Shown: positions 2,305 to 56,478, counted from the first letter of the stretch. The stretch is DNA of 64,000 bases from an uncultured Acidobacteriota bacterium (GCA_963822445.1 CAWGHO010000003.1:352001-416000); one strand, 5' to 3'. Numbers and translations: made by a program. Notes: a model not told the origin generated them from the letters alone.

Positions 2305-5300
2305 CTACCGCACCGACCGGCGTTTGCCGGTCTCGCCCGGCTCCGACACGGTGATGGTGCGCACCATCTGATCCGAACCGGCGGTGTTGGTCACGGTGAG
2401 CGTCACCGTGAACGTGCCGGTCGTCGCGTAGGTGTGAGTGGGGTTCTGCAGCGTCGAGGAAGCGCCGTCGCCGAAATCCCAGTGCCAGGACGTCGGCACG
2501 CCGGCCGACCTGTCGCGGAACTGCACCGGCAGGCCGCGGGCGGGGAAGCCGGGCGCGAAGTCGAAGACCGCGTCCGGAGTCACGACCACGGCCAGGCACA
2601 CGCCGGGAACCTTCACGTTGGTGATGGCGATGTCGTCGAGATAGAAGCCGTCGTACTCGAGTCCCGGATCGCTGGTGAAACGCCAGCGGATGCGAACCGG
2701 TTTGCCCGCGTGCGCCGCGAGCGAGGACTTGTACTGCGTCCATTCGGTCGTGTTCGCGTTTCCGTCCGGACCGGTGAACGCGGGAGTGGTCTTCAGATCG
2801 CCGCAGGCATTCGCCGGTGGCTGGCTGCCGCTCGTCCCCTGCGTGTCGGCCAGCGTGCCGGGATATCCGCTCGCCGGCGGCAGCGCGGACCAGGTCAGGC
2901 CGTTGTCCGTCGAGAGCTCGACGATGACGCCGTCCCACTCCCACTCCAGGTTGAAGCGCGCGTAGTACGAAAGCTCGGCGTTCGCGTCGAGCACGATCTC
3001 CGGCGTCACCAGCGACGCGCAGGTGTTGCGCGCGTAGATGTCGCGGTCCGGAGCGTTGTGATACGAGTGCGTTCCGGTTCGCCCCTGCACGGAGCTGATC
3101 TGCCACGGAGCCTCGGGCGTCAGAAACGCGCCGGTATCGCCGGCCGTGTCGGTCCAGGTGCCGACCGCGCCCGGAGCGCCGAACGCCGTCGCGAAGAGCC
3201 GCGTGTCGTTGGTCTCCTGGTTGCCGCGATTCGGTCCGGTCGATCCGTTCGTCGAGTCTTCGGCGCGGACGACGTAGTAGTACGTCGTGCCGGAGTTCAC
3301 GTTGATGTCGCTGAACGACGTGGCGGTCGTCGTCGCGTACGGCGTGCCGCTCGGAACGAACTCGGGCGACGTGGAACGGTAGATGTTGTAGCGAAGCGCT
3401 GCGCCGAGGGGGCAGTTCGACTGACCGGCGGCCCAGGACAGATTGATGCGGCAGGCCGTGCCGTCGGCGAGTGCGGTCGCCAGACCAGTGAAGTTCGGGG
3501 CGAGGTCGCACAGACCGGCGGCAATGATCGACACAGCGTTGGAAGCGGGACCTTCACCGCAGTCGTCCGCGCCGCGGATGATGTACGAGTAGATGTAGCC
3601 ACCCTGCGCGAAGCGGTCGGTGAAGGTGGAACCGGTGGCCGTGCCGATGTAGCGGAAGTCAGCGGGATTCGGATTCGTGCCGGTGGCGCGATAGACCTGC
3701 GTCCGCGTCGAAGAGCTGGCCGCGGTCCAGGAGAGGTCGACGCCGCGCGTCGGGTTCGTACCCGCCCGCAGACTCGCGGGCGCGGCGGAGATCGAGGTCG
3801 AACAGGTTGCCGCAGAGACCGCGAGTGCGAATCCCTGACGGTTCGTCGCGCTGCGGCCGTTGCCGGGGACGCTCGCTCCGCGAACGGTGATCGTGTACGT
3901 GCCGCCGACAGGCGCCGCGAAGCGGACCTGTTCGACGTTGTTGAGCCGGTCCGCGAAGCCGCCGGTGATCGAGTCGGAGGTCGCGTTGAAGACGTTGCCC
4001 ATGAACGTGCCGGCGCCGTTGGTCACGGTGAGATCGAGATCATTCACCAGCGCCTTCGCCGCCCCCGGCGTCCCCTCGGGATCAGTCCAGACCAGCGTCG
4101 CCCGGAACTCCTGACCGGCGGCCACGCTGACGGTGAAGCTCTGGCTCTCACCGGTCAGCAGGCCCTGCGCGTTCGGCAGGTCCCACACGCGAAGCTTTCG
4201 CGCGTCGCCGGGGAAATAGATGTTGTTGTCGAGGTGGATCTTCCCCCAGCCGAAGCGCGGATTGCCGAACTGCTCGTTGGTGGGAAGGGCCAGCGTGCCG
4301 TTGAGGAGCGTCGCTTTGACCAGCGGTGCCGAGGGGTTGAGGCGATCGTTCGTGGTGCGGGTTCCGCTCGGGTAGAAGCCGTCCGCGAAATACTGGCGGA
4401 CCAGCACCGCGCCGCCGGCGACCGTCGGAGCGGCCATCGACGTTCCCTGTTTCGTCGACGTGCCGCAGTTGTTGCTGTCGTGCACGCCGTCGCCGCCCGC
4501 GGAGATGATGCCCGCGCCCGGGGCGACGATGTCCGGCTTGATGCGGCCATCGACTGTCGGGCCGCGGCTGGAGAAGACGGCCAGGAGCATGCTCAGGCCC
4601 GTGTTCACCGCGCCGACGGTGATGAGGTTCTTCGCATTGGACGGTGAGCCGGTGCTCGTGATCGCCGGTCCGTCGTTGCCCGCGGAGAAGATGATGGTCA
4701 TCTCGTCGTGGTCGAAGAGGAACTGGTCGACGATCTGCTCGTACGCGGTGTACGCGCCCTTGCTCGGCGATCCGTACGAGTTGCTGTGAACGCGTGCGCC
4801 GCCGCGGAGGGCCTGCAGGAACAGGTCGTAGGGATTGCCGCCGCCGCCCAGGTTGCCGTCGGACGCGCCGATGTCCTGGAAGAGGATCTGGGCGTTGGGG
4901 GCCATGCCGTCGCCGCGATCGACTCCGCCGCTGGTCGGGGATGAAGGATTGACGAAGTCGTCGCCGGCGGCCGTTCCGGCGGTGTGCGTGCCGTGGAAGC
5001 TGTTCGCGTCGTAGGCGTCGGCACCTTCCTGCACCCAGTAGCCGATGACTTTGTTCGTCGGGAAGAGCGGTCCCGGCTGATCGGTGGTCGCGCTGGCCGC
5101 GTCGGTCACGGCGTTCACGCCGTTCAGGACGCGGAAGAAGCACATGTCGGAGTCGAGACCCGAGTCGGCGACGGCGACGATCTGCCCAGTGCCGGTGATG
5201 CCTTTGGCGAAGAGGGTCCGTCCGGCATCGCCGTCCTTGTTGCCCTGAATCGCCGCGGAGGAGTTGCCGTTGTGCAGCTCCATGCCGTCATCAGGCTCGA

Positions 5301-5940
5301 TCCAGGCGATGCCTTCGATGTCCGCGGCCTTGCGGATGAAGTAATCCGCTGTACCGGCCGGAATCTGCAGCTCGATGAAGTGTCCGTGTGCGCCGTCGAC
5401 GGTCTTCGTCACGGCGAGGTCGGGATTCGCGCGCTTCAGCAGCTCGATGGTCTTGCCCACCGACATGTCCTCGAAGGGGAGGACGCGGAGGGCGAGGATC
5501 TCCTCGCTGTGCGAGGGCCAGAGGCGGGGATGAACTTTGAAGCCGGGCTCGTAATCGCCGACCCAGCGGACCGCCGCATGCGACGCGACGGTTTTCCTGG
5601 CGGACGGCGCGACGCGCGCGACGTAGGTGTTCTCCGGCAGATAGCGCAGGAACTTCACGCCGAGACGCTCGAGGTCTTCTTTGTTGGCGCCGGCGCGAAG
5701 CTGGACGATCGAGTACTCGATGCCTGCTCGCGGGCGGCCGAAGCCGACCTGCTGAAAGTCGGGACGCTCGGCCAGCGGATCGAAGATGGCCGAGCTGAGG
5801 AAGATCTGGTTTCCTTCCCGGGCCTTGCCGACTTCGGTTGCGGTGATGTCCCGCGGCGCGACTTTGCGCGGAGCGGCGGTACCGGCGAACAGGGAAACGG
5901 TGAAGAACAGCGCGATCAGCACTCGAGCAGTTGATTTCAT
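2305..5940 (-). CDS. Secreted S8 subtilase (KP-43-like) with FN3-like, jelly-roll and PKD domains
   Basis: Signal peptide MKSTARVLIALFFTVSLFA. Catalytic motifs VADSG, HGTHTAGT, GTSMAAP; PKD motif WHWDFGDG. Ends KRRSVR. Confidence 0.92.
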   Translation of the reverse strand: MKSTARVLIALFFTVSLFAGTAAPRKVAPRDITATEVGKAREGNQIFLSSAIFDPLAERPDFQQVGFGRPRAGIEYSIVQLRAGANKEDLERLGVKFLRYLPENTYVARVAPSARKTVASHAAVRWVGDYEPGFKVHPRLWPSHSEEILALRVLPFEDMSVGKTIELLKRANPDLAVTKTVDGAHGHFIELQIPAGTADYFIRKAADIEGIAWIEPDDGMELHNGNSSAAIQGNKDGDAGRTLFAKGITGTGQIVAVADSGLDSDMCFFRVLNGVNAVTDAASATTDQPGPLFPTNKVIGYWVQEGADAYDANSFHGTHTAGTAAGDDFVNPSSPTSGGVDRGDGMAPNAQILFQDIGASDGNLGGGGNPYDLFLQALRGGARVHSNSYGSPSKGAYTAYEQIVDQFLFDHDEMTIIFSAGNDGPAITSTGSPSNAKNLITVGAVNTGLSMLLAVFSSRGPTVDGRIKPDIVAPGAGIISAGGDGVHDSNNCGTSTKQGTSMAAPTVAGGAVLVRQYFADGFYPSGTRTTNDRLNPSAPLVKATLLNGTLALPTNEQFGNPRFGWGKIHLDNNIYFPGDARKLRVWDLPNAQGLLTGESQSFTVSVAAGQEFRATLVWTDPEGTPGAAKALVNDLDLTVTNGAGTFMGNVFNATSDSITGGFADRLNNVEQVRFAAPVGGTYTITVRGASVPGNGRSATNRQGFALAVSAATCSTSISAAPASLRAGTNPTRGVDLSWTAASSSTRTQVYRATGTNPNPADFRYIGTATGSTFTDRFAQGGYIYSYIIRGADDCGEGPASNAVSIIAAGLCDLAPNFTGLATALADGTACRINLSWAAGQSNCPLGAALRYNIYRSTSPEFVPSGTPYATTTATSFSDINVNSGTTYYYVVRAEDSTNGSTGPNRGNQETNDTRLFATAFGAPGAVGTWTDTAGDTGAFLTPEAPWQISSVQGRTGTHSYHNAPDRDIYARNTCASLVTPEIVLDANAELSYYARFNLEWEWDGVIVELSTDNGLTWSALPPASGYPGTLADTQGTSGSQPPANACGDLKTTPAFTGPDGNANTTEWTQYKSSLAAHAGKPVRIRWRFTSDPGLEYDGFYLDDIAITNVKVPGVCLAVVVTPDAVFDFAPGFPARGLPVQFRDRSAGVPTSWHWDFGDGASSTLQNPTHTYATTGTFTVTLTVTNTAGSDQMVRTITVSEPGETGKRRSVR

Positions 5941-6035
5941 GGCCACCATTGATGTTCTCGGACGATAAGAGAGCAAAGAAGGTAAGCCAAGGTGCGCATT
6001 CCCGCGAGGGGAAAGTGTTATTGGGCGCTCCGAGC

Positions 6036-8018
6036 CTACTTCCGCTTCTTCGGTCCCTTCTTCGCGCCGGCGTAGAACGGCGTCTCCGCGCGCGGCCCGC
6101 GCGCGGGGCGAGGGCCGGGGCGGCCAGTCGTGGCCTCGCGACGCGGGCCGGCTGGCTTGGCGTAGCGAGGAGGACCGGACGGGCGGGCGGGGCGATCGTC
6201 GCGCGGGCCGGCATCGCGGCCGTAGCGCGGAGGTCCGCTCGGCCGAGGCGGACGGTCATCGCGCGATGGCCGATCCTCGCGAGGCGCAGCATCGCGTCCA
6301 TATCGCGGCGGTCCCGTCGGCCGCGCGGGGCGTTCGCGATCGCGGTCGGCGTATCGAGGCGGCGGCGGTCCGCTCGGGCGCGACGGTCTTTCGCGCGGCG
6401 GCGGCTCGTTGCCGGCCACGCGGATGTTCACCTTCTTGCCGCGGAACTTCGCGTGGCCGACTTTTGCGATCACCGTCTCGACGAGATGCTCGGGAATGCC
6501 GACGTACGTCATGTCATCGCGAATGTCGATCGGGCCGATGTCGCGGCCGGGGATGTCCGCTTCGTTGGCGATCGAGCCGACGATGTCCGCGGGGCGGATG
6601 CCGTCGCGTTTGCCGACGGCCATCGACAGCCGCACTGTTTTCCCGGGCCTGTCCTCGGACGGCGGTTCGGGACGCGCCGCGACGACAGGCTCCGGCACGA
6701 CGGCCAGAGATCGGGCGTTGTTCGCGATCCGAGCCGCCGCCGCAGCAACCTCCGCCATGTCGAACGGACCTTCCTCGGCCAGCTGCTCGACGAGCTCGAC
6801 GTACAGATCGAGATCGCCTTCCGCGATGGTCTTGCGGATCGCTTCCTTGAATACGCCGATGCGCTTCGCCGCCACGTCCGCGCGAGTGGGGATCTTCATC
6901 GGCTTGATCGGCGAGCCGGTGTAGCGCTCGATCTCGCGCATCATCCGCCGTTCGCGAGGGGTGACGAAGAGCGTGGCCACACCGGTGCGCCCCGCGCGTC
7001 CGGTGCGTCCGATGCGATGCACGTACGCCTCGACGTCATGAGGAACGTCGTAGTTGATGACGTGGGTCGATCTGCTCGACGTCGAGCCCGCGCGCGGCAA
7101 CGTCGGTCGCGACCACGATCTCCACCTGTCCCGCGCGCAGTCGGCGGATGACGCTCTCGCGCAGCGGCCTGGGTCATGTCGCCGTGCATGGCCACGGCGG
7201 CGAATCCGCGGCCTTCGAGCTTCTCCGCGAGCTCCGCCGATCCGGTCTTCGTCCGGCGGAAGATGAGCACGGCCTCGGTCGGCTGTTCGAGCTCCAGGAT
7301 CTGCGTCAGCACCTCGAGCTTCTGCCCCTCGGAGACGTTGAGGAAACGCTGCTCGATGAGCCGGCGTGCTCACGTCGGATGCTCGATCTCGATCCGCTCC
7401 GGATTGCGCAGGTGGCGCTTGGCGATGCGCAGGACTTCGTCGGGCATGGTCGCGGAGAAGAGCGCGATCTGCCGCTCGGCCGGTGCGGCGCCGAGGATGC
7501 GCTCGACTTCTTCGATGAAGCCCATCTTCAGCATCTCGTCCGCTTCATCGAGGACGATCACTCTTGATCTTGTCGAGCTTGAGGCTGCCCCGATCGAGAT
7601 GATCGATGAGGCGGCCGGGCGTGCCGACGACGACATGCGCGCCGCGCTCGAGGCGCTTGAGCTGCGGCACGATCGGCGCGCCGCCGTAAACGGGCAGCAC
7701 GCTGACGTGCTCCATCTTCGCGGCATACGAATGAATGGCCTCGGCGACCTGCATCGCCAGCTCGCGCGTCGGCGTGAGCACGAGCGCCTGCGTGTCGCGG
7801 CTTTTCGGGTCGATTTTCTGAAGGATCGGCAGCGCGAATGCGGCGGTCTTGCCGGTGCCGGTCTGCGCCTGGCCGATGAGGTCGCCGCCGGCGAGCAGCA
7901 GGGGAATGGTGCGCTCCTGGATCGGCGTCGGCACTTCGTATCCGAGACCCGTGAGCGCTTCGAGCAGCTTCGGGTCGAGGCCGAGGTCGGCGAAGGTGAG
8001 CGTGTCGCTTTCGTTCAT
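6036..8018 (-). CDS. deaD: DEAD-box RNA helicase DeaD/CsdA with DbpA RNA-binding domain (several frameshifts as given)
   Basis: Q motif [31 protein letters not shown] and HRIGRTGR are spread over several frames. Indels near 7562, 7372/7361, 7166 and 7068. Confidence 0.9.
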
Positions 8019-8037
8019 GCGTGATAAGAGATCACAA

Positions 8038-9068
8038 ATGCGGGACTTTCGCTCCGACAACACGCAGGGCTGTTCTCCGGAGGTCCTCGAGGCCATCGCG
8101 CGCGCCGCCGCGGGGACCATGAGCTCGTACGGCAGCGACGAGATCACCAGGCGCGTGCAGAAGCAGTGCCGGGAGATTTTCGAGACCGACCTCGAGGTTT
8201 TTCCGGTGATCACCGGCACGGCCGGAAACGCGCTGGCCATCGCCTCCATGCGGCCGTCGATCGTGCTCTGCCACGAGGATGCGCACATCGTTCGCGACGA
8301 ATTGGGGCGCCGGAGTTTTATGCGGATGGGGCGAGGATGGTGGCGGTGGCGGGGGCGGCGGGGAAATTGAGCCCCGGTGTAGTGTGGGCCTCTGGCCTAC
8401 CTCTGACCCCCGCCCAAGGTAGGCCGGAGGCCCACACTACACCGCTAGTCCTCAGCCTCACCACCGTCACCGAAGCGGGCACGGTATACACCGCCGACGA
8501 GATTCGCGCGCTCACTTCATCCGGCCGTTACTCCGTCCACCTCGACGGCGCGCGGTTCGCGAACGCCGTCGTCTCGACCGGCAGCTCGCCGGCCGATCTG
8601 ACCTGGCGCGCGGGGGTGGACATCCTCGTCTTCGGCGGGACGAAGAACGGCCTCCTCGCCGCGGAGCTGATCGTCGTCTTTCGAAAAGAGCTCGCCACCG
8701 AGCTCGCGCCGCGCATTCATCGCGCGGGACATCGTCCGGCGAAGATGCGCTTTCTGTCCGCGCAGTTCGAGGCTTACCTGACCGACGATCTCTGGCTCCG
8801 CAATGCCCGCCACGCCAACGCGATGGCGACGCAGCTCGCGGAAGGGCTGGAGACGATCTACCCGGTCGAGGCAAACATCGTCTTCACGCGATTCAAACCG
8901 GAGGTCGCGAAGAAGCTGACCGAGGACGGATTTCAGTTCTTCGATTGGCCGATTTTCGGCGAGGACGCGTTCAGGCTCGTGACCGGATTCGCCACGACCG
9001 CTTCCGAAGTCAGCGATTTCTCGAGCAGCATCGCCGCCGCATCGGGCGGCAGCGGCCGCGCGAAGTAG
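8038..9068 (+). CDS. ltaE: Low-specificity L-threonine aldolase (one frameshift near 8305)
   Basis: MRDFRSDN...GTAGNALA...HEDAHI, then in the next frame TEAGTVY, HLDGARFANA and FGGTKNG (PLP lysine). Confidence 0.85.
8375..8444. repeat. REP-like inverted doublet inside the ltaE coding sequence
   Basis: CGGTGTAGTGTGGGCCTCTGGCCTACCT...AGGTAGGCCGGAGGCCCACACTACACCG; same family as 2230-2298. Confidence 0.85.
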
Positions 9069-11101
9069 AAGCCCTGCGCGTAGTCGACGCCGAGGCCGCG
9101 CATCCGCCTGGCCTGCTCCTCGATCTCCAGCCCTTCGACGGTGACGGCCATGCCCAGCACGCGCGCCAGGCCGGAGATGGTCCGCACGATCTCGTTCCCT
9201 CGAACGGCATCGGCATCGAGCAGGAAGGAGCGATCGATCTTCAGCATGTCGAACGGAAACTCCCGCAAGGAGCTCAGCGACGAATAGCCCGTACCGAAGT
9301 CGTCGAGACTCAGCTTCACGTTGAGCGCGCACAACCTCCGCAACAGTTGCGCGGCGGCATCAGCATTGTCGATGAGCAGGCTCTCCGTGACCTCGAGATG
9401 CAACCGCTCCGGCGCCACGCCCGATGCGTTGACGATCTCTTCGACGCGCTCGACGAAATTCGGCTGCAGCAGCTGGCGCGGCGACAGGTTGACGTGCAGG
9501 TCGATCGCGTGGCCGGTGAGTCCCGCGTCATCCCATTCCTTCATCTGCCGCAGCGACTCGCTCAGCACCCACTCCCCGATCGGCACGATCAGCCCCGTCT
9601 CCTCGGCGATATTGATGATGGCATCGGCCTGCACGAGTTGATCGCCGCGCTGCCAGCGCACCAGCGCCTCGAAGCCGACCAGCATCGAGTCGCGCATGGC
9701 AACGATGGGCTGGTAGAAGACGCGCAGTTCCTCGCGCTCGATGGCGCGGCGCAAGTCGGTCTCGAACTGGAGCAGTTCCACGGTCCGCTCGTGCATCGCC
9801 GTGTCGAAGACCTCATGCCTGGCCTTGCCGCGCTCTTTCGCGCGATACATGGCGATGTCGGCATCGCGCAGCGCGTCCTGCGGATTGCGGTAGCCCGTGG
9901 TGCTCACGGCGATGCCGATGCTGACGGTGGTGAAGACCTCATGGCCGCCGAGTTGAAAGGGCTCGACGAGCGCTTCCTGGATGCGCCGCGCGGTCCGCAC
10001 CGCTTCGGCCGCCTGATCGAGGCAGTCGATGAGGATCGCGAACTCGTCACCGCCGAGGCGGGCGATGGTGTCGCTGGAGCGGAGCGTGTCGGACAGCCGG
10101 CGGGCGACGGCGATGAGCAGGTCGTCGCCGAGGGTGTGGCCGAGGCTGTCGTTGACGACTTTGAAGCGATCGAGGTCGAGGAAGAGCACGGCGAAAACGC
10201 TGTCCGGGCGGCGGCGATGCGTTTCCATCGCCCGTTGCAGCCGATCCATGAACAGCGCGCGATTCGGAAGCTGGGTGAGGGCGTCGTGAAAGGCGTCGTG
10301 GGTGAGCCGCTCGACGGCGACCTTCCGTTCGGTGACGTCGGTCTGGGATCCGGCGATGCGCGTGGCACTGCCGCTCGCGTCGCGAACCGCCAGTCCGCGG
10401 CTGAGCATCCAGCGGTACGAGCCGTCCTTCGTGCGCATGCGGTGCTCGTTCTCGAAATGCGGGGTCAGCCCGCGCACGTGACGATCCATCTCGCTGCGCA
10501 GAATCACCACGTCATCGGGATGAATGCGCGACCACCACTCATCCGGCGCGTCGCCGACCTCATCCTCGGCATGACCGAGCATCTCCTTCCAGCGAGGGGA
10601 GAGGTAGATCTCGTTCGCGCGCAGGTCCCACACCCACAGCCCGTCGTTCGCGCCGCGCGCGGAGAGCGCGTAACGCTCTTCACTTTCGCGCAAGGCCTGG
10701 AGCGTGCGGCTTTGCTCGAGCGCGTAACGGATCGAGCGCTCGAGCAGGCGCGCGTCGATCTGCCCCTTCACGAGGTAATCCGCGGCCCCTTCCTTCATCG
10801 CGGCGAGATCGATGTCGCCGTCGCCCTGGCCGGTGAGGAGGATCAGCGGCGCGGAAACGCCCGCCTTTCGCGCGTGGCGCAGGACTTCCAGGCCGTCGTG
10901 CTCGCCGAGACGGAAGTCGACGAGAAAGAGATCGTGTCCGTCGCGGGCGATGGCCGGCAGCGCTTCTTCGAATGACGAGACCCATTCGAGCTCGAACTTC
11001 GTGCGGCGGCTGTCGGCAAGGAGATCGCGAGTGAGAACGAAATCGTCCTCATCGTCCTCGACGAGCAGGATCCGTACGGCGCGCGTGTCCAGATCAGTCA
11101 A
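8933..11101 (-). CDS. REC-PAS-GGDEF-EAL diguanylate cyclase/phosphodiesterase
   Basis: Receiver LLVEDD, PAS, intact GGDEF, EAL and DDFGTGYSSL motifs. Confidence 0.95.
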   Translation of the reverse strand: MTDLDTRAVRILLVEDDEDDFVLTRDLLADSRRTKFELEWVSSFEEALPAIARDGHDLFLVDFRLGEHDGLEVLRHARKAGVSAPLILLTGQGDGDIDLAAMKEGAADYLVKGQIDARLLERSIRYALEQSRTLQALRESEERYALSARGANDGLWVWDLRANEIYLSPRWKEMLGHAEDEVGDAPDEWWSRIHPDDVVILRSEMDRHVRGLTPHFENEHRMRTKDGSYRWMLSRGLAVRDASGSATRIAGSQTDVTERKVAVERLTHDAFHDALTQLPNRALFMDRLQRAMETHRRRPDSVFAVLFLDLDRFKVVNDSLGHTLGDDLLIAVARRLSDTLRSSDTIARLGGDEFAILIDCLDQAAEAVRTARRIQEALVEPFQLGGHEVFTTVSIGIAVSTTGYRNPQDALRDADIAMYRAKERGKARHEVFDTAMHERTVELLQFETDLRRAIEREELRVFYQPIVAMRDSMLVGFEALVRWQRGDQLVQADAIINIAEETGLIVPIGEWVLSESLRQMKEWDDAGLTGHAIDLHVNLSPRQLLQPNFVERVEEIVNASGVAPERLHLEVTESLLIDNADAAAQLLRRLCALNVKLSLDDFGTGYSSLSSLREFPFDMLKIDRSFLLDADAVRGNEIVRTISGLARVLGMAVTVEGLEIEEQARRMRGLGVDYAQGFYFARPLPPDAAAMLLEKSLTSEAVVANPVTSLNASSPKIGQSKN

Positions 11102-14396: not shown

Positions 14397-14399
14397 GTC

Positions 14400-15450: not shown

Positions 15451-15463
15451 GACGCTCCTCGCT

Positions 15464-19482: not shown

Positions 19483-19485
19483 TCG

Positions 19486-37288: not shown

Positions 37289-37315
37289 GGTGTGGTGCAG
37301 GCCTCCGGCCTGCCT
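37289..37315 (+). repeat. Single REP-like unit
   Basis: GGTGTGGTGCAGGCCTCCGGCCTGCCT, identical to the left arm at 2231. Confidence 0.85.
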
Positions 37316-41318: not shown

Positions 41319-41391
41319 TTGGGAATCTTAGTGGTTGCGGGGTTGCTGGGTTGCCGAAGGATTTCCGCGTCCGCACCCGTCCAACGGGTAC

Positions 41392-45524: not shown

Positions 45525-48500
45525 CGTCAGTGGACAGCTGCGCCACGTTGTCGATCCCCTGGGGCGGCGGACCACGCTGAGCTACAACGAGCACGACTTC
45601 GTAAGTGAGATCGAAGACTGGCGTGGGCGCAAAGTCACCTACGCGTATGAGGCCGGCCGTCTGGTGTCCGTGAAGGGGCCGGAGGTGCAGAGCGCGGAAG
45701 GCTTCAGCGGGCGTCCCGAAACGCGTTATGGCTACCAGCCCATCGAGGCCGGTCTCACGGCACACACCGACTTCGCGGCAAACCTGAAGACGATCATGAA
45801 TCCCGGCGTTTCCGCCGCGCGGGTAACGTTCGAATACGACTTGTCGACGAACGCCGCGAAGCGCGATCGCGCCACGAGTCAGACCTGGGCCACGGGCGAA
45901 ACGGCGCAATTCCAGGTAACGCAGACCAGCGATCGGTTACCGACCCAGGTCACGATCACCGATGTCCTCGGACAGAAGCGGATCTACGAACTGTCCGGCG
46001 TAGTCCGGCGGCATGTTGCGAAGACCACTCTGGAGAACGTGCCGGTGTTCGAGAGCGACGAATCGCTCGCGCAGGCGCCGCTGAACGCCGACGCCGAGCC
46101 GCAGACCCTCGTTGTGGAAGTCCTCGAACGAAACCCTCATGGCCAGGCCACGCGGATCAAATCACCGCACGACCAGGAAACGACCACGACTACCGAGCCG
46201 GCGGGCGGAGGTGCAGTCGGAACGCGAATCAAAGAAATCGTTCAAAAGCTGGGTCAGGAGACTCTCGCGACGGCCATCCAGTTCGATGTTCTGGAAGGGG
46301 CGGGCAACAACCCTTTGAGCATTGGACGTGCCGCAAATGGCGGAACACCGGAGATGCGCGAGTCGCCTATCGCCACGCGCAACCGGCTCGAAGTGTTGGT
46401 GACTGACGACGACGTGAAGACCCTGCAGAAATTCGACCCGCACGGGCAGTTGCTGAGGGCGGCTCAGCAGGACGCCGGCGGAAGCGCCGAGACGGGCGTG
46501 CAGGAGTATCAGTACTACGACGCCAGCGCGGCGCCGATCGCCCGCGGACGGATCAAATCAGTTACCCGCCCTGACGGAGCGGTATCGCTTCTGTTCAACT
46601 ACGCCACAACCGCGCTCGGCGGCGACCGCACGACCATCACCGACGCTATCCGAGGCACGGTAACAACGGTCGACCGCGACGCTCGAGGGCTCCCGACGCG
46701 AAGCGCGATCACGAAAAACGCGGCCACGCTCAGCGACGTGACGTTTGCATACGACGCGAACGGCCTGCTCAAAGCCTCGACCAGGCAGCAGGAAACGCTC
46801 GGCGAAGTGGTCACCCGCATGGCGTACGACGACATGTTGCGCGAGACCGAGGTTTCCACGACTCAGACACGCGTCGGCGGCTCGCCTGCAACCGTGACCG
46901 CGAAGACGGTGTGGGACCTTTCGAATCACACGATCACACGGACCGATCCCTTCGCCGGCAGCGAAAGCACCGCGGCAAGAGAGATCACCACGCTCGACTC
47001 GTTGGGCCGGACTGCGGAAGTGAAGCGTGTGTCGGCGGCCGGCGATGCGCAAACGCTGCGCGTCTTCCGATACGACCGCCAGGGACAACTGTCGTACGAG
47101 ACGGACCGTACCCGCTGGGGCATCGTCCGCGTCTACGATCCGTTCGGCCGGCAGACGCTGAGCGTGGATTCGCGCATGCAGCGGCACGAAGCGAAGTGGA
47201 CGCCGTGGGATCAGCCGGAGACCGAACAGCGTCTCGATGGGGGCCTCGTCCAGCAGGGAGGCACACCCTCGGTCGTCAGCAACGTGAAGCGCATCTTCAC
47301 GCGGAACGGGCAGTTGCGGGCCATAAATGAAGAGCTGATCGCCGGTACGCAGTTCCGTTCGACCCGCTACGGATGGGCGAACGGCGGACGCGAGACCAGC
47401 GTTCGCATGGGAGCTATCGCCAGCCTGGACGAGCCATTGAGAGCGGACACCGTCGTGCGTCTCACCGAGAGCCACGTCGACGCGGCGGGGCGGACGACCG
47501 ACTTCAAGGTCGGAGAGGGGAGAGGGATCAGCGGCACCTTCACCGAGTTCGGTTTGTACGGTCACACCGAGACGGCATCGAATGAATACACGGGCATGCT
47601 GCCGTCCGCGCAACACGTGCGCGAGCCGCGCACGGGAGCGAGTTTCATCACCATTCACGCCTACGACGGGTTGGGACGGCCGGCCACGACTGTTGCACCT
47701 GGTGGCTACGAGATTCAACGGACGTTCGACGAGGTGGGCAATGTCCTTTCGACGGAAACCTCGGGTCGCGATGATCTCTCGCAGGCCCGATACGACTCGC
47801 GAGGGCTCGTCATTGAACAGATGCACCCCGATTCAACCTCGATTGAGTACCAGTACGACGCCCTCGGCAATCTCACCAGGTATCGCGACGAGCGGGGGAA
47901 AGACACCACCTATGAGACCGATGGTCTCGGCCGCGTCATCAAGGCGAGGTATCCGGACGGAACCTGCGAAGCGACGATCTTCGAGAACGGATCCGGGCTG
48001 ACCGCTGCCACGCGCGATCGCGCCGGGCAATGGCTGATTTATCGATATGCCGGTTATCTCGTCGACGAGATTCGCCTCGGTCCGATAGGCGCAGCAGCGG
48101 AGTGCACCTCGCCGATCACGGCAGCGCCGTGGTCGGAGGAGGTGTTCGTCAAGTACGGGTACGACCTCGCGAATCGTCTCGTCAGCATTCGAAGTGCGAC
48201 CGCGGGTGCCGAGTGGGCTGATTACGACCGCGGCGGAAGGCCGCACACGACGCGTTCGATCCGCTATAAAGACGGAACGGGTCTCACGAGCGGCGAGATC
48301 CTCGACGTTCACAGCCAGCGTCACGTCTGGTCGATTTTCAACGGTGAGCGCACGCGGTATCGGATGCCCGTGCCGGGAACTACCGTCGCCGAGAACGCGT
48401 CGGCCTCCGATTGGAGAAGCTGGATCGACGAGCAGCGCGATGCGGTGGGCAACGTGATCAGTCAAAAGGCGATCACGACCGAATCGAGCGACGCGGTGGG

Positions 48501-50708
48501 TCCTTTCATCTCCCAGGCCTTCGCACGAGGTGTCGGACGTCTTGCTTCGCGGGTACTGCCGTTGTCGGGGAACGCGTCGCTCAAGGCGCTGTATGGCTAC
48601 GCCGAAGCGACGGTTGTCCCGCCGGCGCCCGATGTCCCGACGGTCCCGAGTGCGCCTGCACCGCACTCGGGTCTCATGGGCCGCGCAGAATTCTCTGTTG
48701 GCAACGCGACGATTGCCGGCAGCGTGGTGACGCGTGACGCCGTAAGGCGCGTTTTCGACTCACAGCTCCTCGGGCTTGGAAATCGCTTCTCGCGTTTCGA
48801 TTATGACGACCGCGATCGACTGACGGAATCGATCCTCGCGTCCCTGCCGCAGGCCGCGACTGCCCCGAAGATCGGCGACACACTCGACGCGGCCGACTTC
48901 AGGTCGCACCGCACCGTGACGCGTTTTTCCGCGGACGAACGAGCGCGGCTCGGCGTGGCGACTGCGCGTGAGATTGAGTTGCCGTCGTTCGTCGCAACAC
49001 CGAACGACGCCCATCAGATCGAAAACCTGGATCTGGACGGTCCTGACGATCTCGAGTTCGCCTTCAGCGGCGGCCGGCGAACCAGTGACGGTTCGTGGGA
49101 CGCCAAGTACGACCCGCTCGGGCGACTCGTCCAGCTCACGCGCATCTCGCCGGAACCGGATCAGCCAGCGCGGTTCGAGTACGACTACAACCCACTGAAT
49201 CGGCTGGTCGGACGTCGCGTCTGCACGAACACCGATGCGAACCCGTGCGCGCTCGAGACCAGAACGACCGTGCTTGCGCGCGACGGTCTGCCGGCGCACG
49301 CCACATTCGTCTGGATCCCATAACGGACCGCCTTCTTTCGATCTTCGAGGCTGAGAAGTCCACGGGCGCCGGCGGCGATGAATACGCCGGCCTTCAGCGT
49401 CAGTACATCCACGGTGACCGTGCCTACGACGATCCCATCGTGGTGATCACGCCGAACGGCACCTTCCACCCCATCCTGGACGAAGCGGGGACAGGCAACC
49501 TGATCGCCGTACTCGACGACGCTGGCGTGCTGGTCGAGCGTGCCTTCTACGGTGACTCCTACGGCGCGTCCCCGCGATTCCTGCACGGCCCGGTCGTCCA
49601 GCGCATGACCCGCAAGGTCACGAAAAACCAGCAGGGCGAGATCACCGAAGTCGTCTTCACCGCGAACCTCTCCGACGCCGTCCGCGCCGATACGGTCGTA
49701 GCGGGCACCGTCCTTCGCTCCGTCGCCGGCGACGCAACCGCCGCCCTTTCCACCGTCGAGCCCACCCTCGATATCGCCGACCCCCACACCCTCCGCTGGA
49801 CACTGAACGCCGCTCAATGGAACGCCCTGACCAGCGCTGCCGGCGTGACTGCGATCGAGATCGCAATCACGAAGGAGCTGCGTGCGGTCGGGTGGGGAGA
49901 GGCCGAGGTCCTCCGGCCGCCAGGTTGGCTGGTGACACTCGTCGGCTTGACCTCCACCGCCACCGACTCGGTCGTCCATCGCCAGTCGATCGCCGCGTTC
50001 GAGACGGCGACGGAACAAGAGACGACGCTTTTGGCAATCTCCGATCTGTACTTAGTGGCTTCGACGGAATCTCGAAGCCGAATCCTCACTGGTTGGAAGA
50101 GTGCGCCGTTTGTAGAGCCGGCGACGGGCTTTGCGTTTCTGCGTGACCGCTGGTACGACGCATCATCAGGGACGTTCTTAGGTCCTGATCGGCTTGGGTA
50201 CCGCGACTCGTCGAACTTGTATGCGTTCTGCGGTGGCGACCCGGTCAACTGCTCCGACCCGAGCGGCCTGGGTGGAGTTGGCGAAGCCGTGATGATGGCT
50301 CGCGAACGCCAGCGGCTGAAGACGCCGGAGCAGAGGCGGGCGGAGCATCGTGAACTCGGGAGTCTGACCGTCGGTTTTATTCCGGTCGCTGGAGAGATTC
50401 ACGATGCCTCACAGGCGATCACGGGATATGACCTAGTCACCGGTGAGCGTCTGTCGTGGTGGGGACGTGGACTCACGGCAGGTGCGTTCTTCGTGCCGTT
50501 CGTCGGCGGGAAAGTAGTGCGTGACGCCGCGGCTGAGGTGGTTCGTCCGCTCAGGGGATTCCTCAACGACGTCAACCCGTTCCGCTGGTTTGATGACATT
50601 GGTGATGCTGCAGCGAGAGGTCTGAATGAAGGCGCAGTCGAGGCTTATCAACATCTGATGGCGAACAGAGGGTGCTCGAGTTCTTCCGTGATCTACGCGG
50701 AATGTTGA
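45481..50708 (+). CDS. Rhs/YD-repeat protein with Rhs core and pre-toxin TG-like region; frameshift near 49314; toxin tip apparently lost
   Basis: Many YD repeats; RWYDASSGTFLGPD...NLYAFCGGDPVNCSDPSGL; FIPVAGEIHDASQAITGYDLVTGERLSWWGR. Confidence 0.88.
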
Positions 50709-50717
50709 CATAACCCA

Positions 50718-51002
50718 TTAGGCCGAACGTCGCCGTCGACTGCTGACCTGTTCTACGTGACGGCTGGTGACGAGCGCATCGATGAGGGCGATAGCGATAT
50801 CGCGATCTTTGCGTTCGAGTTTTTCAAGATCTCTGAGTGTGCCGATGCGAAGAGCGAGATGGCGGGGAATCGTGATGTGGTGCTGGCGGGGAGCGCCGAT
50901 CGTCAGGCGCATGTGGCTTTCGGTCTGACGGGTGGCGGTGTAGCCGATCCGGCCAAGGCGCCGGGCGAGCTCGTCGCCCGAAAGATCGCGAGGCAATCTC
51001 AA
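50718..51002 (-). CDS. hicA: HicA family toxin with an apparently foreign C-terminus
   Basis: MRLPRDLSGDELARRL...RQTESHMRL...HHITIPRH...IGTL. Confidence 0.8.
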   Translation of the reverse strand: MRLPRDLSGDELARRLGRIGYTATRQTESHMRLTIGAPRQHHITIPRHLALRIGTLRDLEKLERKDRDIAIALIDALVTSRHVEQVSSRRRRSA

Positions 51003-51211
51003 CCGGTGATCACTTCCTCGCGCGTGAAATGGAGTCTGACCACGCGGGGAATGGCGGCGTCTTCGAAGTGGCAGCGAACGGCGTCGCGAACGTTCTGTTC
51101 GGGCGCGGCGACGTCGTCGGCTTCCGTGAAGATCGATTCGCCTAGTGCACGTGCACGTGCGGTGTAGCCGCCGTCAGGTGCTTCCTCGACAAGGAAAATG
51201 AGCTCGTTCAT
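50999..51211 (-). CDS. hicB: Short HicB-like antitoxin
   Basis: LIFLVEEAPDGGYTAR(AR)ALGESIFTEAD...VRDAVRCHF; overlaps the hicA start. Confidence 0.8.
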   Translation of the reverse strand: MNELIFLVEEAPDGGYTARARALGESIFTEADDVAAPEQNVRDAVRCHFEDAAIPRVVRLHFTREEVITG

Positions 51212-52115
51212 CGAGCCCTGATGTTACCCCTTCCACCCGCCCGCCCCGTTCTCGTGTCCGCAACGGCCGTCGTCTGTGGCGGCCGCCCAAGATGGTGTTG
51301 TGGTCTGACACGGCCGCGCGCTGTGTTGCTACGCGCGCTTCCGCGCGCTCGGTCATCGTGAGTGCACGCCTGGAGCTCGTTGCGCGTGAATCGCGGCCGT
51401 GCAGCCAAACACAGTCTTGGGCGGACCCCGGTTCATCGCGGTCTCACGTGTGCGGCCCTCGCGCTCGCGCGCGGCCGCCGGGCGCTGCACGGCTCGTCGT
51501 TGCGCGTCGCCGCTACCGTCCCGCCAGATGCATCGGCGCCTGCGTTGATCGAAGTCGCGCTGTAGTTGACGCAGCGCCGCCCAACGAAATCGCGAGCGCC
51601 ACTCCATCGCATCGGCGCTGCGCAATTAAGCGCGGCCAAGCCAGGGCGGCGGCGCTCGCCACGCCGCGCGGTGCGATCGTCAACGCGGCCGGGTGGTGGA
51701 GGCGTTGACGATCGTGTCGCGCGGCACTACCGCGCTCGCGAAGAAGTTGGGTGGGAGCTTCGCCGCCGGCGCGGGGAGCGTGGGTGGTGGCCAGCGCCGC
51801 GCGTGGTGCGCTTGTGCGCGCGAAGGGCGGGTGTGTGGTGGCCGCGCGCGCTGCGCACCACGTGGCGCAGCTGCCAGAGGCGGCTGCGTGCGGCGAAAGC
51901 GAGAGGGAACGTGCGACCGGATCGCCGCACCGCGTCGATGCAGCACGTCACGCCGGAGGGGTTGCGCGGGTGGCGCGCGTGCGGCCGGAGCGAACCGAAG
52001 TCCGGCCAATGCCCGCTTCGATCGCGCGTGCGCAGACACGCGTCGGATCGCAAGCGCGCATTGGCCGGCAGCGACGCAGCGAGAACCGTGTGGCCGCGGG
52101 GCGGGCGGGTGGGGA

Positions 52116-52178
52116 TCAGCGAAGGCCGCGTTGCTTGAGCAGTCGCACGACCCGCCGGTAGAGCGGAGATGGTTGCAT
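52116..52178 (-). CDS. Putative 20-aa basic peptide
   Basis: MQPSPLYRRVVRLLKQRGLR*, preceded by AAAGGAGG. Confidence 0.35.
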   Translation of the reverse strand: MQPSPLYRRVVRLLKQRGLR

Positions 52179-52437
52179 GAAGTTGTCCTCCTTTCAGTTG
52201 GTCTCTGAGCGAAACATGTTCGGCAGTTCTGTGAGATCGCCTAATGTCCGAAAAAGCACGTCGGCCTTCGTCTCGAGAATGTTGTGCCGCGATCGACGAA
52301 GCTCAAGTCCTCCGCCACCCAATCGACTTGACCTTCGTCGATCGCGGCACGGCGGAGGAAGTAAGCCGAAGGCCGACGAAGCGCCGAACTGCTGCCTTGG
52401 GCCTCTGAAGCTGCTCTTTCCTTAGCTGCTAAAGTGA

Positions 52438-53925
52438 GTGACATCGATGGCAGCTAAGAAGAGAGCAGCGATCCTCTTCGTGCTGGTGACGATCGTCGCC
52501 AGTTCTAGCGCCTTCGCCTCGATCCCGCGCTCGGCGGTGCTCGATCCGCCGCCGATCGAGACGACAGAGTTCGCTCCTCATCAAGATCTTCCGCTCCTCA
52601 CAGCGCACGGGTACGACGCGTTCCTGCCCACTAACCGCGTGTCGGACGAAGTCGCTCGTTTAGAAAAAACTCGCGCCTGGGGTTCGCGAGTCGGAGCGGA
52701 ACTTTTGCGTCTGCCCGAGAAGGGGCTAAGTCGAGCGCTGCGTCAGGGTTACGCGAAAGGTAGCTCAGAAAACGCAGAAGAGATCAGAGACTTGGCAATC
52801 GCAGATCTCTATCTGGTCGCGGCGACGGAGTCAAAGACGAAGTTATTGACGGGGTTCAAGGCCGCGCCGTTCATCGAGCCGGCGACCCGCTTCGCCCTCT
52901 TCAGGAACCGCTGGTATGACGGCTCGACCGGAACGTTTCTCAGTCCTGACCCGATGTCGTACGAGGACTCCTCGAACGTGTACGCGTTCTGTGCCGGTGA
53001 TCCGATCAACTGCGAGGATCCTCTCGGCCTCGCGCTACAGACGAAGAACGGCGGCACGAACTGGCTTGGGAACCTCGGCGACACCGCGCAGGTGCGGAGC
53101 GGTCCGTGGTACGTGCGCAACAGCCCGCAGACGCTTTCCGCGGGTCTCGACTTCTTCGGGAACACGCTCTCTGAGCTTCTGATGCTGGACGCTTGGGCGG
53201 ACGCGAATGTTGTCATGGGTGACTCATCGCGATCCGCGGGCGAACGGACGTGGGCAGCGACGAAGGGTATTGGCATCACGGCGATGAACCCTGTCGGGGG
53301 TGAGATCGCCGGAACTACCGGCAAGGTTTTGCTTAAAATCCCTGGTACAAAGACGCTCGCCAGCAAGATAGCGAATAGTGGAGTTGGTCGGGTTCTCACC
53401 GCGGAGGTGAACCCCCTGCGGTGGTTCGATGATGTAGGCGAAGCAGCGGGACGAGGTCTCAACGAAGGAGTCGCCGAAGCCATTCAGCAGTTAGCACCGA
53501 ACTTGACGCGGATCGCCGCGTTTGATGCTGCGCGTTCAATGCCTGGCCGCAACGTTGCGTACCGCGCATTCAACGCGAAGGATGCTGAACGATGGGCGCG
53601 AGGGCTCGGAATTGAGGCGAAGAACCCGGCCGGTGAATGGTCCTTGGGTGAATACATCGCATTTGGCTCGCGGCCACCTTCTTGGACGAATGACCCATGG
53701 ATCGCGACGACTACTGACCTCGACCTCGCACGCGCGTTTAACGAACAAGGGAAGCAGCTGGGAATCGCAGCGATTGATCTGAATCTCGTACGGAGGCCAC
53801 AGTTGCGAGCGTGGGACGTGTACCCGCGCGGTTCCGGTGAGCTATATCACTTCTCGATCTGGCAACAAGAACTTTCGGTTTACCAACGGATTCCGCGAGA
53901 AGCGATCATTGGATGGGTTCCATGA
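52438..53925 (+). CDS. Orphan Rhs module: signal-like N-terminus, Rhs core end and ADP-ribosyltransferase-like C-terminal toxin
   Basis: RNRWYDGSTGTFLSPD...DPINCEDPLGL; C-terminal AYR...WIATT...QQE...IP. Confidence 0.8.
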   Translation: MTSMAAKKRAAILFVLVTIVASSSAFASIPRSAVLDPPPIETTEFAPHQDLPLLTAHGYDAFLPTNRVSDEVARLEKTRAWGSRVGAELLRLPEKGLSRALRQGYAKGSSENAEEIRDLAIADLYLVAATESKTKLLTGFKAAPFIEPATRFALFRNRWYDGSTGTFLSPDPMSYEDSSNVYAFCAGDPINCEDPLGLALQTKNGGTNWLGNLGDTAQVRSGPWYVRNSPQTLSAGLDFFGNTLSELLMLDAWADANVVMGDSSRSAGERTWAATKGIGITAMNPVGGEIAGTTGKVLLKIPGTKTLASKIANSGVGRVLTAEVNPLRWFDDVGEAAGRGLNEGVAEAIQQLAPNLTRIAAFDAARSMPGRNVAYRAFNAKDAERWARGLGIEAKNPAGEWSLGEYIAFGSRPPSWTNDPWIATTTDLDLARAFNEQGKQLGIAAIDLNLVRRPQLRAWDVYPRGSGELYHFSIWQQELSVYQRIPREAIIGWVP

Positions 53926-54190: not shown

Positions 54191-54258
54191 AATGTTCGCG
54201 AGCCGCGAGCATCATCAGGCAGCGCCGTACGTCGTGGACCGTGGCGGACAGTCGCGAC

Positions 54259-56478
54259 TCACTTCACCGCCCTCCTCCTCCCCACCCCTCTCGTCAACAC
54301 CACCTCCGTGGTCTCTCCCGACCGTCGCGGAATCGTGATCGTCGTCGCGTGAACGGTGCGGGTGAAGACCGACGCGCCGGCGACGTCCCAGGAGCCGGGG
54401 ATGGTGAGCTGGAACGATCCCACCGCGGTAGCGGTGGGGTCGGCGATGGAGAGGTGCAGGGTGCGCGTGGCGGGCTCGGTGATGTAGATCGTGGCGGGGG
54501 CGGAACTCTGGAAGCCCTCCAGGCTCGCGCCGGCGGTCCAGAAGGTGATGCCGGTGGCGCGGGTGCGGAGGTCGCGCACGGCGGAGACGCGCTCGTTGTT
54601 CGCCAGAATCACCAATGGCCGGGCGGCGGCCCAGGTGCGCATCTGCGTGGCGGTGACGTTCGGGACGATCACGTACTCCGCGCTGGCATGAACCGGCACA
54701 GTGCCGTGGTCGAAGGCCAGCGTGACGAAGGGATGGGTCTTCGGCGTGGCGTCGGTGTTGCCGCCGAGCGCGGCCCAGGTGCCGGTGCGCGTCTGCCGCG
54801 AGACGCGAACGTCGGTCGAGGTCGGGAACCAGTAGCCGACGCCTTCGAGCGCGGCCCAGTCCGTGCCGCGCGTGACCTGCGAGCTCGCGTTCATCAGCGG
54901 CCACTGATTGACGATCGTCTCCACGCGATTCGGGCTCGTTGAGGTGATGCTGTTGGTGAGGAAGGCGATGGCGTCGTCGAAGAAGAACCAGGCTTTCTTT
55001 GCGGTGAGCGTGGAGTTGAGCGGCGCGAGCTCCATCGCCGTGACGCCGTTGCGGCCGTCGCTCGTTCCGCCGGCCAGCGTGTTCCTGCCGAAGCCATAGA
55101 TCGCGCTCGCGGCGTCGGGCTTGAGCTCGACGGTCGTGCCGGGCAGGCGGGTCCAGTCGAGCGCGGGGAAGATCTCCCGGCCGAAGTATTCGTTGCCCTT
55201 CAGCACGAGATGGAAGCGGCCGTCGGACTGGCGCGCGCCGAGAAGGTTCTCCTCGTTGGTGCTCTCTCCGGATTTCGTGCGGGTTGAGAACATCTTCACC
55301 GAGGCGAACCAGCCTTCGCGGCGGTGCACGGTGTAGTCGGAGGCGAAGTAGTGGCGATGCCCGCTCGGCCAGGCCGCGGCGTGACGCGCGCTCTCGATCT
55401 TCGCGGCCAGGCCGGCCAGCTCGATGCTCATCGTGCCCTGCCAGGTCTCGAGCATCTTCGCGGCGGCGGCGCGAATCTCTGCGGCGCGCGGCGATTCGAT
55501 CTCCGAGGCTTGGAGAAGTGCGGCCAGGCCGTTGAAGCCGGTCGTGGTTGGACGGGCGACTTCGCGGCCGACAACGGAGACGTCGAAGTAGTCGCCATGC
55601 AGCGACCAGGCGACGCCGTCGGCGATGTAGTCGTTGAAGGAGGAGAGCGCGTCGGTGCTCAGACCGATGGAAGTCGCGCGCGTGATCAGCGCGTACTTCG
55701 CAACGTCGTTCGCAAACGCGCCGCCGTAGCCGCCGGTGTAGAGCTGCGGCCCGTGCTGATGGAAGGAGCGATCGCGCTTGATGCCGTCGCCGTTGGCGGG
55801 ACGGGTGACGGAGCTCATGGCCGTGCCGACCGCGGCGAGCATGGTCTCGTCGTCTTTGAGCAGCGCGAGCGAGAGATGGGTGAAGCAGGACCAGACCAGG
55901 TTCTGGCCGGTTGGTGTCGGTCCGACGAGCCCGCGCGTCGCCGGTGAGCTGCCGATGCGCAGATGAATGGCGGCGACGAGGTCGTCGTAGGTCTGCTGAT
56001 TGACTTCGCCGCGCATGAGGACGAGGGTCGGGCCGAGGTCGAGGGGGATGCCCATCGTCCAGAACCACCAGTTGCCGAGGGGGAGGATGGTCGCGCCGTA
56101 GAAGCGCTTGACCTGCGCGAGGGACGCGTCGATCTGCCCGAGCAGCGCGCGGTTTTTGTAAAAGGCCTGGCCGGGCGTCTGGTAGGCACGGGCCATGACG
56201 ATCAGCCGCTGGGTGTGCGCCCACGGCGACCAGGATCCGTCAGGGGAGTCGGTGTAGTCGATGTCGCTCCACGTTCCGTCGGAGAGGAGAAATCCGGGCG
56301 CGGTGACGTGCCGGGCGGAGGCCTCGAGGTCGGCCAGGGCGTCTCTCATCCGCGTAGAAGATCGGTCCGCTCCCGCCGCCGTGTGGTAGGCGATGAACTG
56401 GGCGCGGACGCGGTCGATGTCGGCAGCGCTGGCGGCGCCGCTGGCGAGGATGAGGATGCCGAGGAGGAGGTTTTTCAT
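54259..56478 (-). CDS. Secreted polysaccharide lyase family 8 (chondroitin/hyaluronate/xanthan lyase-like)
   Basis: NWWFWTMGIP, TGQNLVW, SFHQH...YTGGYG, GREVAR, NEENL, DWTRLPGTT and KKAWFFFDD. Ends RRRAVK. Confidence 0.93.
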   Translation of the reverse strand: MKNLLLGILILASGAASAADIDRVRAQFIAYHTAAGADRSSTRMRDALADLEASARHVTAPGFLLSDGTWSDIDYTDSPDGSWSPWAHTQRLIVMARAYQTPGQAFYKNRALLGQIDASLAQVKRFYGATILPLGNWWFWTMGIPLDLGPTLVLMRGEVNQQTYDDLVAAIHLRIGSSPATRGLVGPTPTGQNLVWSCFTHLSLALLKDDETMLAAVGTAMSSVTRPANGDGIKRDRSFHQHGPQLYTGGYGGAFANDVAKYALITRATSIGLSTDALSSFNDYIADGVAWSLHGDYFDVSVVGREVARPTTTGFNGLAALLQASEIESPRAAEIRAAAAKMLETWQGTMSIELAGLAAKIESARHAAAWPSGHRHYFASDYTVHRREGWFASVKMFSTRTKSGESTNEENLLGARQSDGRFHLVLKGNEYFGREIFPALDWTRLPGTTVELKPDAASAIYGFGRNTLAGGTSDGRNGVTAMELAPLNSTLTAKKAWFFFDDAIAFLTNSITSTSPNRVETIVNQWPLMNASSQVTRGTDWAALEGVGYWFPTSTDVRVSRQTRTGTWAALGGNTDATPKTHPFVTLAFDHGTVPVHASAEYVIVPNVTATQMRTWAAARPLVILANNERVSAVRDLRTRATGITFWTAGASLEGFQSSAPATIYITEPATRTLHLSIADPTATAVGSFQLTIPGSWDVAGASVFTRTVHATTITIPRRSGETTEVVLTRGVGRRRAVK

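Follow-up and report, generated by a model that had tools for sequence, protein, structure and literature searches.

A conserved arginine-rich C-terminal tail on exported proteins of Thermoanaerobaculia, a candidate localisation tag

The window analysed here is a 64,000-nucleotide stretch of DNA from an uncultured Acidobacteriota bacterium (GCA_963822445.1, CAWGHO010000003.1:352001-416000), in which four open reading frames (ORFs) terminate in the motif [KR]RR[SGA][VA][RK] followed by zero or one residue. This short arginine-rich tail is not a product of chance; it is a real motif under selection at the protein level, which is found on exported proteins of unrelated families. Our favoured reading, to which we assign a probability of about 0.45, takes the tail to be a lineage-specific localisation tag at the C-terminus of Sec-exported exoproteins, specific to Thermoanaerobaculia (a class within the Acidobacteriota) and read by a protein partner.

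The window has a GC content of about 65%, and gene calling with a codon-usage model built from its own long ORFs gave 56 genes, which were annotated with Pfam. Three of the four carriers are intact, each with a clear N-terminal signal peptide. The first (2305-5949, minus strand) is an S8 protease by ORF reading, Pfam and NCBIfam, with the architecture S8 - PPC - choice-of-anchor J/MAM - PKD; its signal peptide is MKSTARVLIALFFTVSLFAG and its C-terminus is ...EPGETGKRRSVR, with the tail KRRSVR (2308-2325) directly 5′ of a TAG stop codon (2305-2307). The second (35487-37286, plus strand) is a repeat protein with a signal peptide and at least four CarboxypepD_reg/transthyretin-like domains (CarboxypepD_reg matched four times by Pfam), which ends ...EPALRRRGVRH; its tail, RRRGVRH (37263-37283), is followed by a TAA stop codon. 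The third is a PL8 polysaccharide lyase (54259-56478, minus strand; Lyase_8 in Pfam) with the signal peptide MKNLLLGILILASGAASA and the C-terminus ...GVGRRRAVK, in which the tail RRRAVK (54262-54279) adjoins a TGA stop codon.

The remaining carrier is a second S8 protease, the gene for which is broken. Its 5′ piece (41335-42033, plus strand) encodes a signal peptide, an I9 propeptide and the Asp/His part of the protease, and its 3′ piece (41955-42773, plus strand, in another frame) the PA domain, the Ser part and the tail (S8 and PA in Pfam); the 3′ piece ends ...KKRRRSARQ, with the tail RRRSARQ (42750-42770) preceded by KK and followed by a TGA stop codon. The stretch that normally lies between the His and Ser regions is missing, and signal peptide and tail lie in separate reading frames. 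A local BLAST search against the sequences gathered here gave no homolog of this second S8, at which no database search was aimed. A DeaD/DbpA-type RNA helicase gene (6036-8288, minus strand) is also in at least three pieces, through frameshifts and one in-frame stop codon, and the two broken genes together suggest either assembly indel errors or genuine pseudogenes. The original prediction, made from the DNA alone, had described these tails on four unrelated proteins, all with signal peptides. The four tails are borne out by the ORF ends, but two of the proteins are S8 proteases, one of them broken, leaving three unrelated families and folds; likewise the signal peptides are present on the three intact carriers, whereas that of the broken S8 stands in another frame than the tail.

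Related regions were gathered by a PL8-alignment scan of genome contigs, which gave 76 loci: 62 from Thermoanaerobaculia/Acidobacteriota metagenome-assembled genomes (MAGs) and an out-group of 14 from other phyla (Fibrobacterota, Sumerlaeota, Planctomycetota-type, Verrucomicrobiota, Lentisphaerae-type, Bacteroidota-type, Kiritimatiellia and Actinomycetes). The window and the 62 related loci comprise 830 called proteins, of which 788 end at a true stop codon, and 296,714 residues. The strict motif [KR]RR[ASG][VA][RK] has 25 matches in this set, 23 of which lie within three residues of a true C-terminus against 0.013 expected from composition, a count that shows positional specificity rather than 23 independent events, most of the matches being PL8 orthologs. 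The other two matches are internal, against 1.2 expected. The arginine-rich background of a high-GC genome, over which a lack of enrichment among secreted proteins would have overturned the prediction, does not account for the tail.

At the nucleotide level the picture is one of free variation. The tail codons differ among the four window genes, and 38 PL8 genes of the loci encode the five tail residues by 38 distinct 15-nucleotide strings, which use all six arginine codons and are followed by TGA (16), TAG (12) or TAA (10). Because the codons vary freely while the residues stay conserved, selection acts on the peptide; a DNA repeat or terminator as the cause of the tail is ruled out by the same differences in codons. 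Read-through or a hidden downstream CTERM domain was also discarded, as beyond the stop codons there is a palindrome or ordinary intergenic DNA (not systematically translated). The palindrome is GC-rich, resembles repetitive extragenic palindromes (REP-like), is preceded by GTAG and has four matches in the window against 0.07 expected: an inverted pair just 3′ of the first S8 gene (2237-2291), one copy 3′ of the repeat-protein gene (37295-37313) and a degenerate copy at 8419-8437.

Homolog searches were run for the three intact carriers, and 120 homologs of each were taken. For the lyase, whose 120 best homologs are 65-93% identical, a relaxed form of the tail is present in 107 of 121 sequences (the window protein included) and the strict form in 50 of 121; for the repeat protein, with homologs 38-100% identical, the corresponding counts are 106/120 and 84/120, and the ending is near-stereotyped (family consensus RRR[AS]VRH). 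Tails occur in 22 of the 120 S8 homologs, essentially those that match the window protein in length and architecture; among homologs of 1200-1240 residues with the same architecture, 21 of 24 keep it. Alternative endings recur among the tail-less S8 homologs (P0418-P0441, P0433-P0464): one is an extension of about 450 residues ending ...WASFVDNxSTDQTFVRPIxxP, and others are short ends of the form ...PPRTP, ...DGQPVVKRK or ...PVELQxLxVE. These endings may be further lineage-specific C-terminal features.

Alignment of the tails on the RRR core, with an anchoring pattern that permitted one to nine residues after the core, reveals that the distance to the protein end is nearly constant, with three or four residues after the core in 97/108 PL8, 104/106 repeat-protein and 22/22 S8 tails. 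Two positions that the anchoring pattern does not force are also restricted: position +4 is V or A (PL8, 89/108; repeat protein, 94/106; S8, 19/22), and position +5 is R (72/104, 95/106 and 14/22, respectively). Position +6 is H, R or the protein end, and the last residue is H in 82 of the 106 repeat-protein tails. Within the core, positions 1 and 2 of the PL8 tails are R in 102/108 and 108/108, with K nearly confined to the first position. The resulting consensus is [KR]-R-R-[AS]-[VA]-R-(H/R)-COOH, a tail of 6-7 residues with a net charge of +4 to +5.

The tail is predicted to be a disordered stub at the extreme C-terminus, lacking a folded domain. In an AlphaFold2 model of the PL8 protein (32 sequences; mean predicted local distance difference test score, pLDDT, 74.7) the last strand spans residues 724-729, and residues 734-739 lack secondary structure, with pLDDT values below 50. 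The tail of every carrier is separated by 4-8 residues, which are often Pro/Gly-rich, from a last domain of Ig-like or beta-sandwich type (Lyase_8_C, CarboxypepD_reg or PKD). No transmembrane (TM) helix was found: within the last 45 residues, Kyte-Doolittle means over 15 residues peak at 0.63-0.81 in the four window proteins, and a value of 1.9 is reached by 0/121 PL8 and 0/120 repeat-protein sequences. An ESM Atlas search with the C-terminal 40 residues of the repeat protein was uninformative, the best score being 0.80, to unnamed clusters.

The tail is restricted to Thermoanaerobaculia/Acidobacteriota MAGs, within the sampling made here, and the source names on tail-bearing homologs are all Thermoanaerobaculia, Acidobacteriota or Acidobacteria. 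Among the in-group PL8 genes with a true stop codon, 43 of 56 have the core and a further ten have degenerate tails (KSRAVRRR, KTRAVR, KPRVASRR, RRRLVRR and similar), the remaining three being truncated, frameshifted or gapped; the tail is found in 0/13 PL8 genes of other phyla. In an all-against-all search of PL8 representatives, a basic tail is kept only by the nearest (P0245-P0248 and the fragment P0319; 46-59% identity), and the distant members end in other ways. A TM segment followed by a basic cluster closes 15 of 150 representatives; six distant homologs have ends resembling the C-terminal domain (CTD) of type IX secretion system (T9SS) substrates, four of which pass the cut-off of the T9SS CTD model TIGR04183; P0298 passes the MYXO-CTERM cut-off, with P0252 slightly under it; and several end in 'VPEP + TM + RRRR', PEP-CTERM-like by eye, with no match to a PEP-CTERM model at E <= 0.01. 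The short tail therefore holds the position at which PL8 lyases of other phyla bear 'choice of anchor' sorting domains. The choice-of-anchor J domain of the window S8, which scores 35.0 bits where the cut-off is 30, adds to this analogy.

The relation of the tail to export was examined by clustering the called proteins into families, a family being counted as a carrier when the majority of its members bear the tail. Signal peptides were assigned by visual inspection and with our own crude hydrophobicity/TM rule in place of SignalP. Further carriers in the loci are an M64 peptidase that also has a PKD domain (L014, with an ortholog in L016), a 971-residue S8 protease (L030) and a 5′-truncated ORF of unknown family (L046). 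A signal peptide is present on every tail family with a visible N-terminus, i.e. the PL8 lyase, the repeat protein, three types of S8 and the M64-PKD peptidase. The raw family table has four signal-peptide families with and 61 without the tail, and three other families with and 207 without it (Fisher p = 0.056). The three 'other' carriers are artefacts: the window S8 was classed there because of a hydrophobic stretch in the mature protein, the second is the broken S8 (N-terminal piece in the other frame) and the third is a PL8 gene fragment (L062). With these corrected by hand, carriers make up 6/67 signal-peptide families and 0/207 others (Fisher p = 1.8e-4; 1.76e-4 with 208 others).

In cytoplasmic families, chance matches to the patterns are confined to single members: one DinB protein (a match to the strict form too), two endonuclease III proteins and one 2-oxoglutarate oxygenase. 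A 94-residue ORF of the window (50718-51002) also matches, and in the out-group loci the tail is found in 0/110 families. The signal-peptide proteins that lack the tail are mostly periplasmic or membrane proteins (SCO1, PCuAC-cytochrome c, a cytochrome c lipoprotein, M16, DPP-IV, a TonB-dependent receptor and LD-carboxypeptidase).

How the favoured tag might work can be outlined as follows. The marked set would consist of multi-domain exoproteins (S8 and M64 peptidases, the PL8 lyase and the adhesin-like repeat protein) that are first exported by Sec and relieved of their signal peptides, leaving the tail and its free carboxylate exposed. The exposed tail would then be recognised in the cell envelope by a lineage-specific partner, the likeliest kind being a C-terminus-binding domain, which would either deliver the folded protein to the surface or the exterior of the cell or retain it there; the tail might afterwards be clipped at its dibasic site. 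Recognition by a partner is favoured because the distance to the protein end is fixed, three positions are nearly all arginine, the A/S and V/A positions are restricted and internal copies are near absent. The tail probably tells the cell where to place its carriers, by an undescribed route.

Several observations weigh against this reading. The p value of 1.8e-4 depends on the hand correction of the three families (0.056 uncorrected), and the loci are syntenic copies of one region, which leaves few independent families. False positives of the signal-peptide rule include a Rossmann-fold NmrA protein and CheB; as these swell the tail-less signal-peptide class, the family test is conservative. 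The tail is rare, with only four more tail proteins (three families) among 774 called genes beyond the PL8 lyase that served as bait for the loci, and it is missing from other exported hydrolases (GHL10, an esterase, M16 and S9), as well as from the S8 homologs of other length or architecture among the 120, which have different endings. Because it is rare and absent from these hydrolases, the tail marks a subset of exported proteins and is ruled out as a general signal for secretion. Neither the window, as had been anticipated, nor 1.1 Mb of related loci yielded a partner or machinery, and the arginine cluster would also suit non-specific binding of anionic polymers. Part of what was originally proposed has nonetheless found support: the enrichment on signal-peptide proteins at family level (after the three corrections, and with a crude classifier), the lack of a TM helix and folded C-terminal domain (Kyte-Doolittle scan and PL8 model) and the confinement to one lineage when other phyla were compared. 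The proposal of a lineage-specific tag for secretion, processing or surface attachment holds only as far as selection, exported carriers and lineage are concerned; a polyanion-binding tail fits the sequence about equally well.

The genes beside the PL8 lyase were considered as tail machinery and set aside, their arrangement being read as conserved synteny around housekeeping genes. The order is PL8 - cold-shock - thioredoxin-like - DUF3857/transglutaminase-like - endonuclease III - thioesterase (window 56617-61583; loci L001-L064), with the neighbours present in 45, 20, 30, 37 and 34 of 62 loci, respectively. Unlike the window copy, the DUF3857 proteins of L043 and L046 have a TM helix and RRRR or RRAGKKR at their C-termini. 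A DUF4349 lipoprotein (about 280-300 residues, with a C-terminal TM helix and arginine cluster) is encoded on the opposite strand beside PL8 in L001 (13688-14560) and about 15 other loci; the window lacks it at the corresponding place. L056 encodes, a few kilobases from its tail-bearing PL8, a protein with a PDZ domain and Sel1 repeats (7449-8960, minus strand; signal peptide by the crude rule only); this protein, seen in one locus, is a possible candidate reader of C-termini.

Among the rival explanations, the one that most needs weighing is electrostatic retention, which we regard as possible, though tentative: the stub, of the form B-B-B-x-x-B-(B) (B, basic), would bind lipopolysaccharide, acidic exopolysaccharide or extracellular DNA without dedicated machinery, and so hold exoenzymes and adhesin-like proteins near the cell. 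The consensus [KR]RR[AS][VA]R fits the Cardin-Weintraub pattern XBBBXXBX, as given in the accessible part of the source (PMC7868326), and a charge of +4 to +5 on a flexible, exposed stub, carriers that act on extracellular polymers and the lack of any machinery in the regions searched are all consistent with it. Binding by charge should, however, allow exchange of K and R and variation in length and position, whereas K is nearly confined to the first position, the tail stands a fixed 3-4 residues from the end and the two non-basic positions are limited to A/S and V/A. A lone six-residue site would also be a weak binder, and internal sites, which would bind polyanions as well, make up only 2/25 matches. 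A putative locus for exopolysaccharide synthesis in the window (28706-32752, plus strand) is an operon-like trio that encodes a secreted TPR protein, a membrane GT2 protein resembling cellulose synthase and a GH26-like protein; an acidic or other exopolysaccharide would bear on the polyanion-binding reading.

It is unlikely that the tail is instead a processing or turnover site, at which a periplasmic or surface protease (dibasic- or tail-specific) sets maturation, activation or half-life rather than location. Its dibasic or tribasic core resembles the sites of basic-residue-specific proteases, and three carrier families are themselves proteases, which are usually matured by cleavage; yet it is not obvious how a folded lyase or repeat protein would be affected by the loss of 3-7 residues from a flexible stub, four different folds bear the same tail and no listed homolog ends straight after RR. 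That the tail is a relic with no present function, i.e. an arginine cluster left behind when a tripartite CTERM signal was lost, or a side effect of arginine-rich, high-GC coding, is highly improbable. The GC content of about 65%, the 'EP' before two of the window tails and the 2-5 arginines in which tripartite signals finish, according to the accessible part of the source (bioRxiv 10.1101/2023.06.07.544157), are outweighed by the excess at C-termini (23 against 0.013 expected), by conservation in three families down to 38-65% identity with free synonymous change and by the absence of majority carriers among the 207 families without signal peptides. Least credible of all is a conserved 3′ RNA or DNA element (terminator, small-RNA site or repeat) with the peptide as a side effect: although the REP-like palindrome lies just 3′ of two of the four tail genes, it begins beyond the stop codon and is absent at the other two, and the tail codons differ among the four genes and the 38 PL8 orthologs, with all three stop codons in use.

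Elsewhere in the window, a 1280-residue RHS-repeat protein (45481-49323) lies within the region 44985-53925 and is followed by about 3.5 kb with few confident gene calls; a small gene pair at 50718-51211 is HicA/HicB-like by eye. Between 20000 and 24000, the GC content falls to 0.598, with a BrnT-type toxin gene (20884-21171) and several small ORFs that belong to no family, and this region may be a mobile or acquired islet. Three GGDEF-EAL proteins (8933-11101, 32868-35369 and 38570-40261, all minus strand) are encoded in the 64 kb, along with a histidine kinase and response regulator pair (11094-13306); the window is dense in cyclic di-GMP signalling.

A conserved TM-less tag of 6-7 residues that proteases, a lyase and an adhesin-like protein have in common throughout a soil class rich in uncultured members would imply an unknown means of exoenzyme placement, and would offer a cheap sequence marker for predicting the extracellular enzymes of Thermoanaerobaculia, which bears on polymer degradation by abundant soil bacteria. 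The bacterial C-terminal sorting signals compared here are all either tripartite (motif, TM segment and arginine cluster) or folded domains. It is conceivable, but doubtful, that the tail is the first TM-less, 6-7-residue bacterial C-terminal sorting signal, its free C-terminus being read by an undescribed envelope receptor or export route of Thermoanaerobaculia; this would amount to a new post-Sec sorting pathway, the components of which could be found through their co-occurrence with the tail. Were the tail only a polyanion-binding stub, it would still offer a small natural tag with which proteins could be tethered to the cell surface or matrix.

No existing Pfam or NCBIfam model describes the tail; such a model had also been named as something that would overturn the prediction. 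In NCBIfam at E <= 10, neither the four proteins nor their last 40 residues matched a sorting-signal model, the same threshold in Pfam gave only the end of the PKD domain for the last 40 residues, and the motif is undescribed in the literature searched, which was open PubMed Central and bioRxiv only. TIGR04183 at E <= 10 matched neither the four window proteins nor their last 40 residues. This model covers 72 positions of a folded beta-sandwich, in contrast to the disordered 6-7-residue stub seen here, although T9SS CTDs likewise stand at the C-terminus of secreted hydrolases, distant PL8 lyases included, and act after Sec export.

A close likeness is to the tripartite signals (LPXTG/sortase, PEP-CTERM/exosortase, GlyGly-CTERM/rhombosortase and MYXO-CTERM/myxosortase), with which the tail shares its extreme C-terminal position and arginine-rich end; as with MYXO-CTERM, it is found at this place on PL8 lyases. 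To our knowledge, the tail has no cognate intramembrane enzyme. The accessible part of one account of tripartite signals (bioRxiv 10.1101/2023.06.07.544157) characterises them as C-terminal, present several times per genome and composed of a signature, a TM segment and a basic cluster, on mostly varied carriers that have signal peptides, and with a co-occurring sorting enzyme. Measured against that part of the account, the tail is alike in having several carriers per genome (here four in 64 kb), signal peptides and unrelated carrier families. It differs in lacking the hydrophobic TM segment and in its length (6-7 residues against about 25-35). As to the signature, R-R and a later R are near-invariant in the tail but are the basic cluster itself, with no separate motif before it.

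Other basic motifs offer partial parallels. As far as the accessible part of PMC7868326 defines it, the polyanion-binding pattern XBBBXXBX is matched letter for letter by the consensus x-[KR]RR-[AS][VA]-R-x, a likeness of pattern only; the Cardin-Weintraub motif was defined in animal matrix proteins, and is usually internal with no tie to the C-terminus. The Arg-tail carriers have Sec signal peptides, unlike the substrates of type IV secretion, which are cytoplasmic proteins without a Sec signal peptide that carry a short, positively charged, arginine-rich C-terminal transport signal. In Fibrobacter succinogenes, many secreted glycoside hydrolases bear a basic terminal domain of tens of residues, which is likewise a basic C-terminal extension of secreted enzymes, although the tail described here is shorter and belongs to another phylum. 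By analogy, the tail, which falls into no known family, may work like the CTERM and CTD sorting signals.

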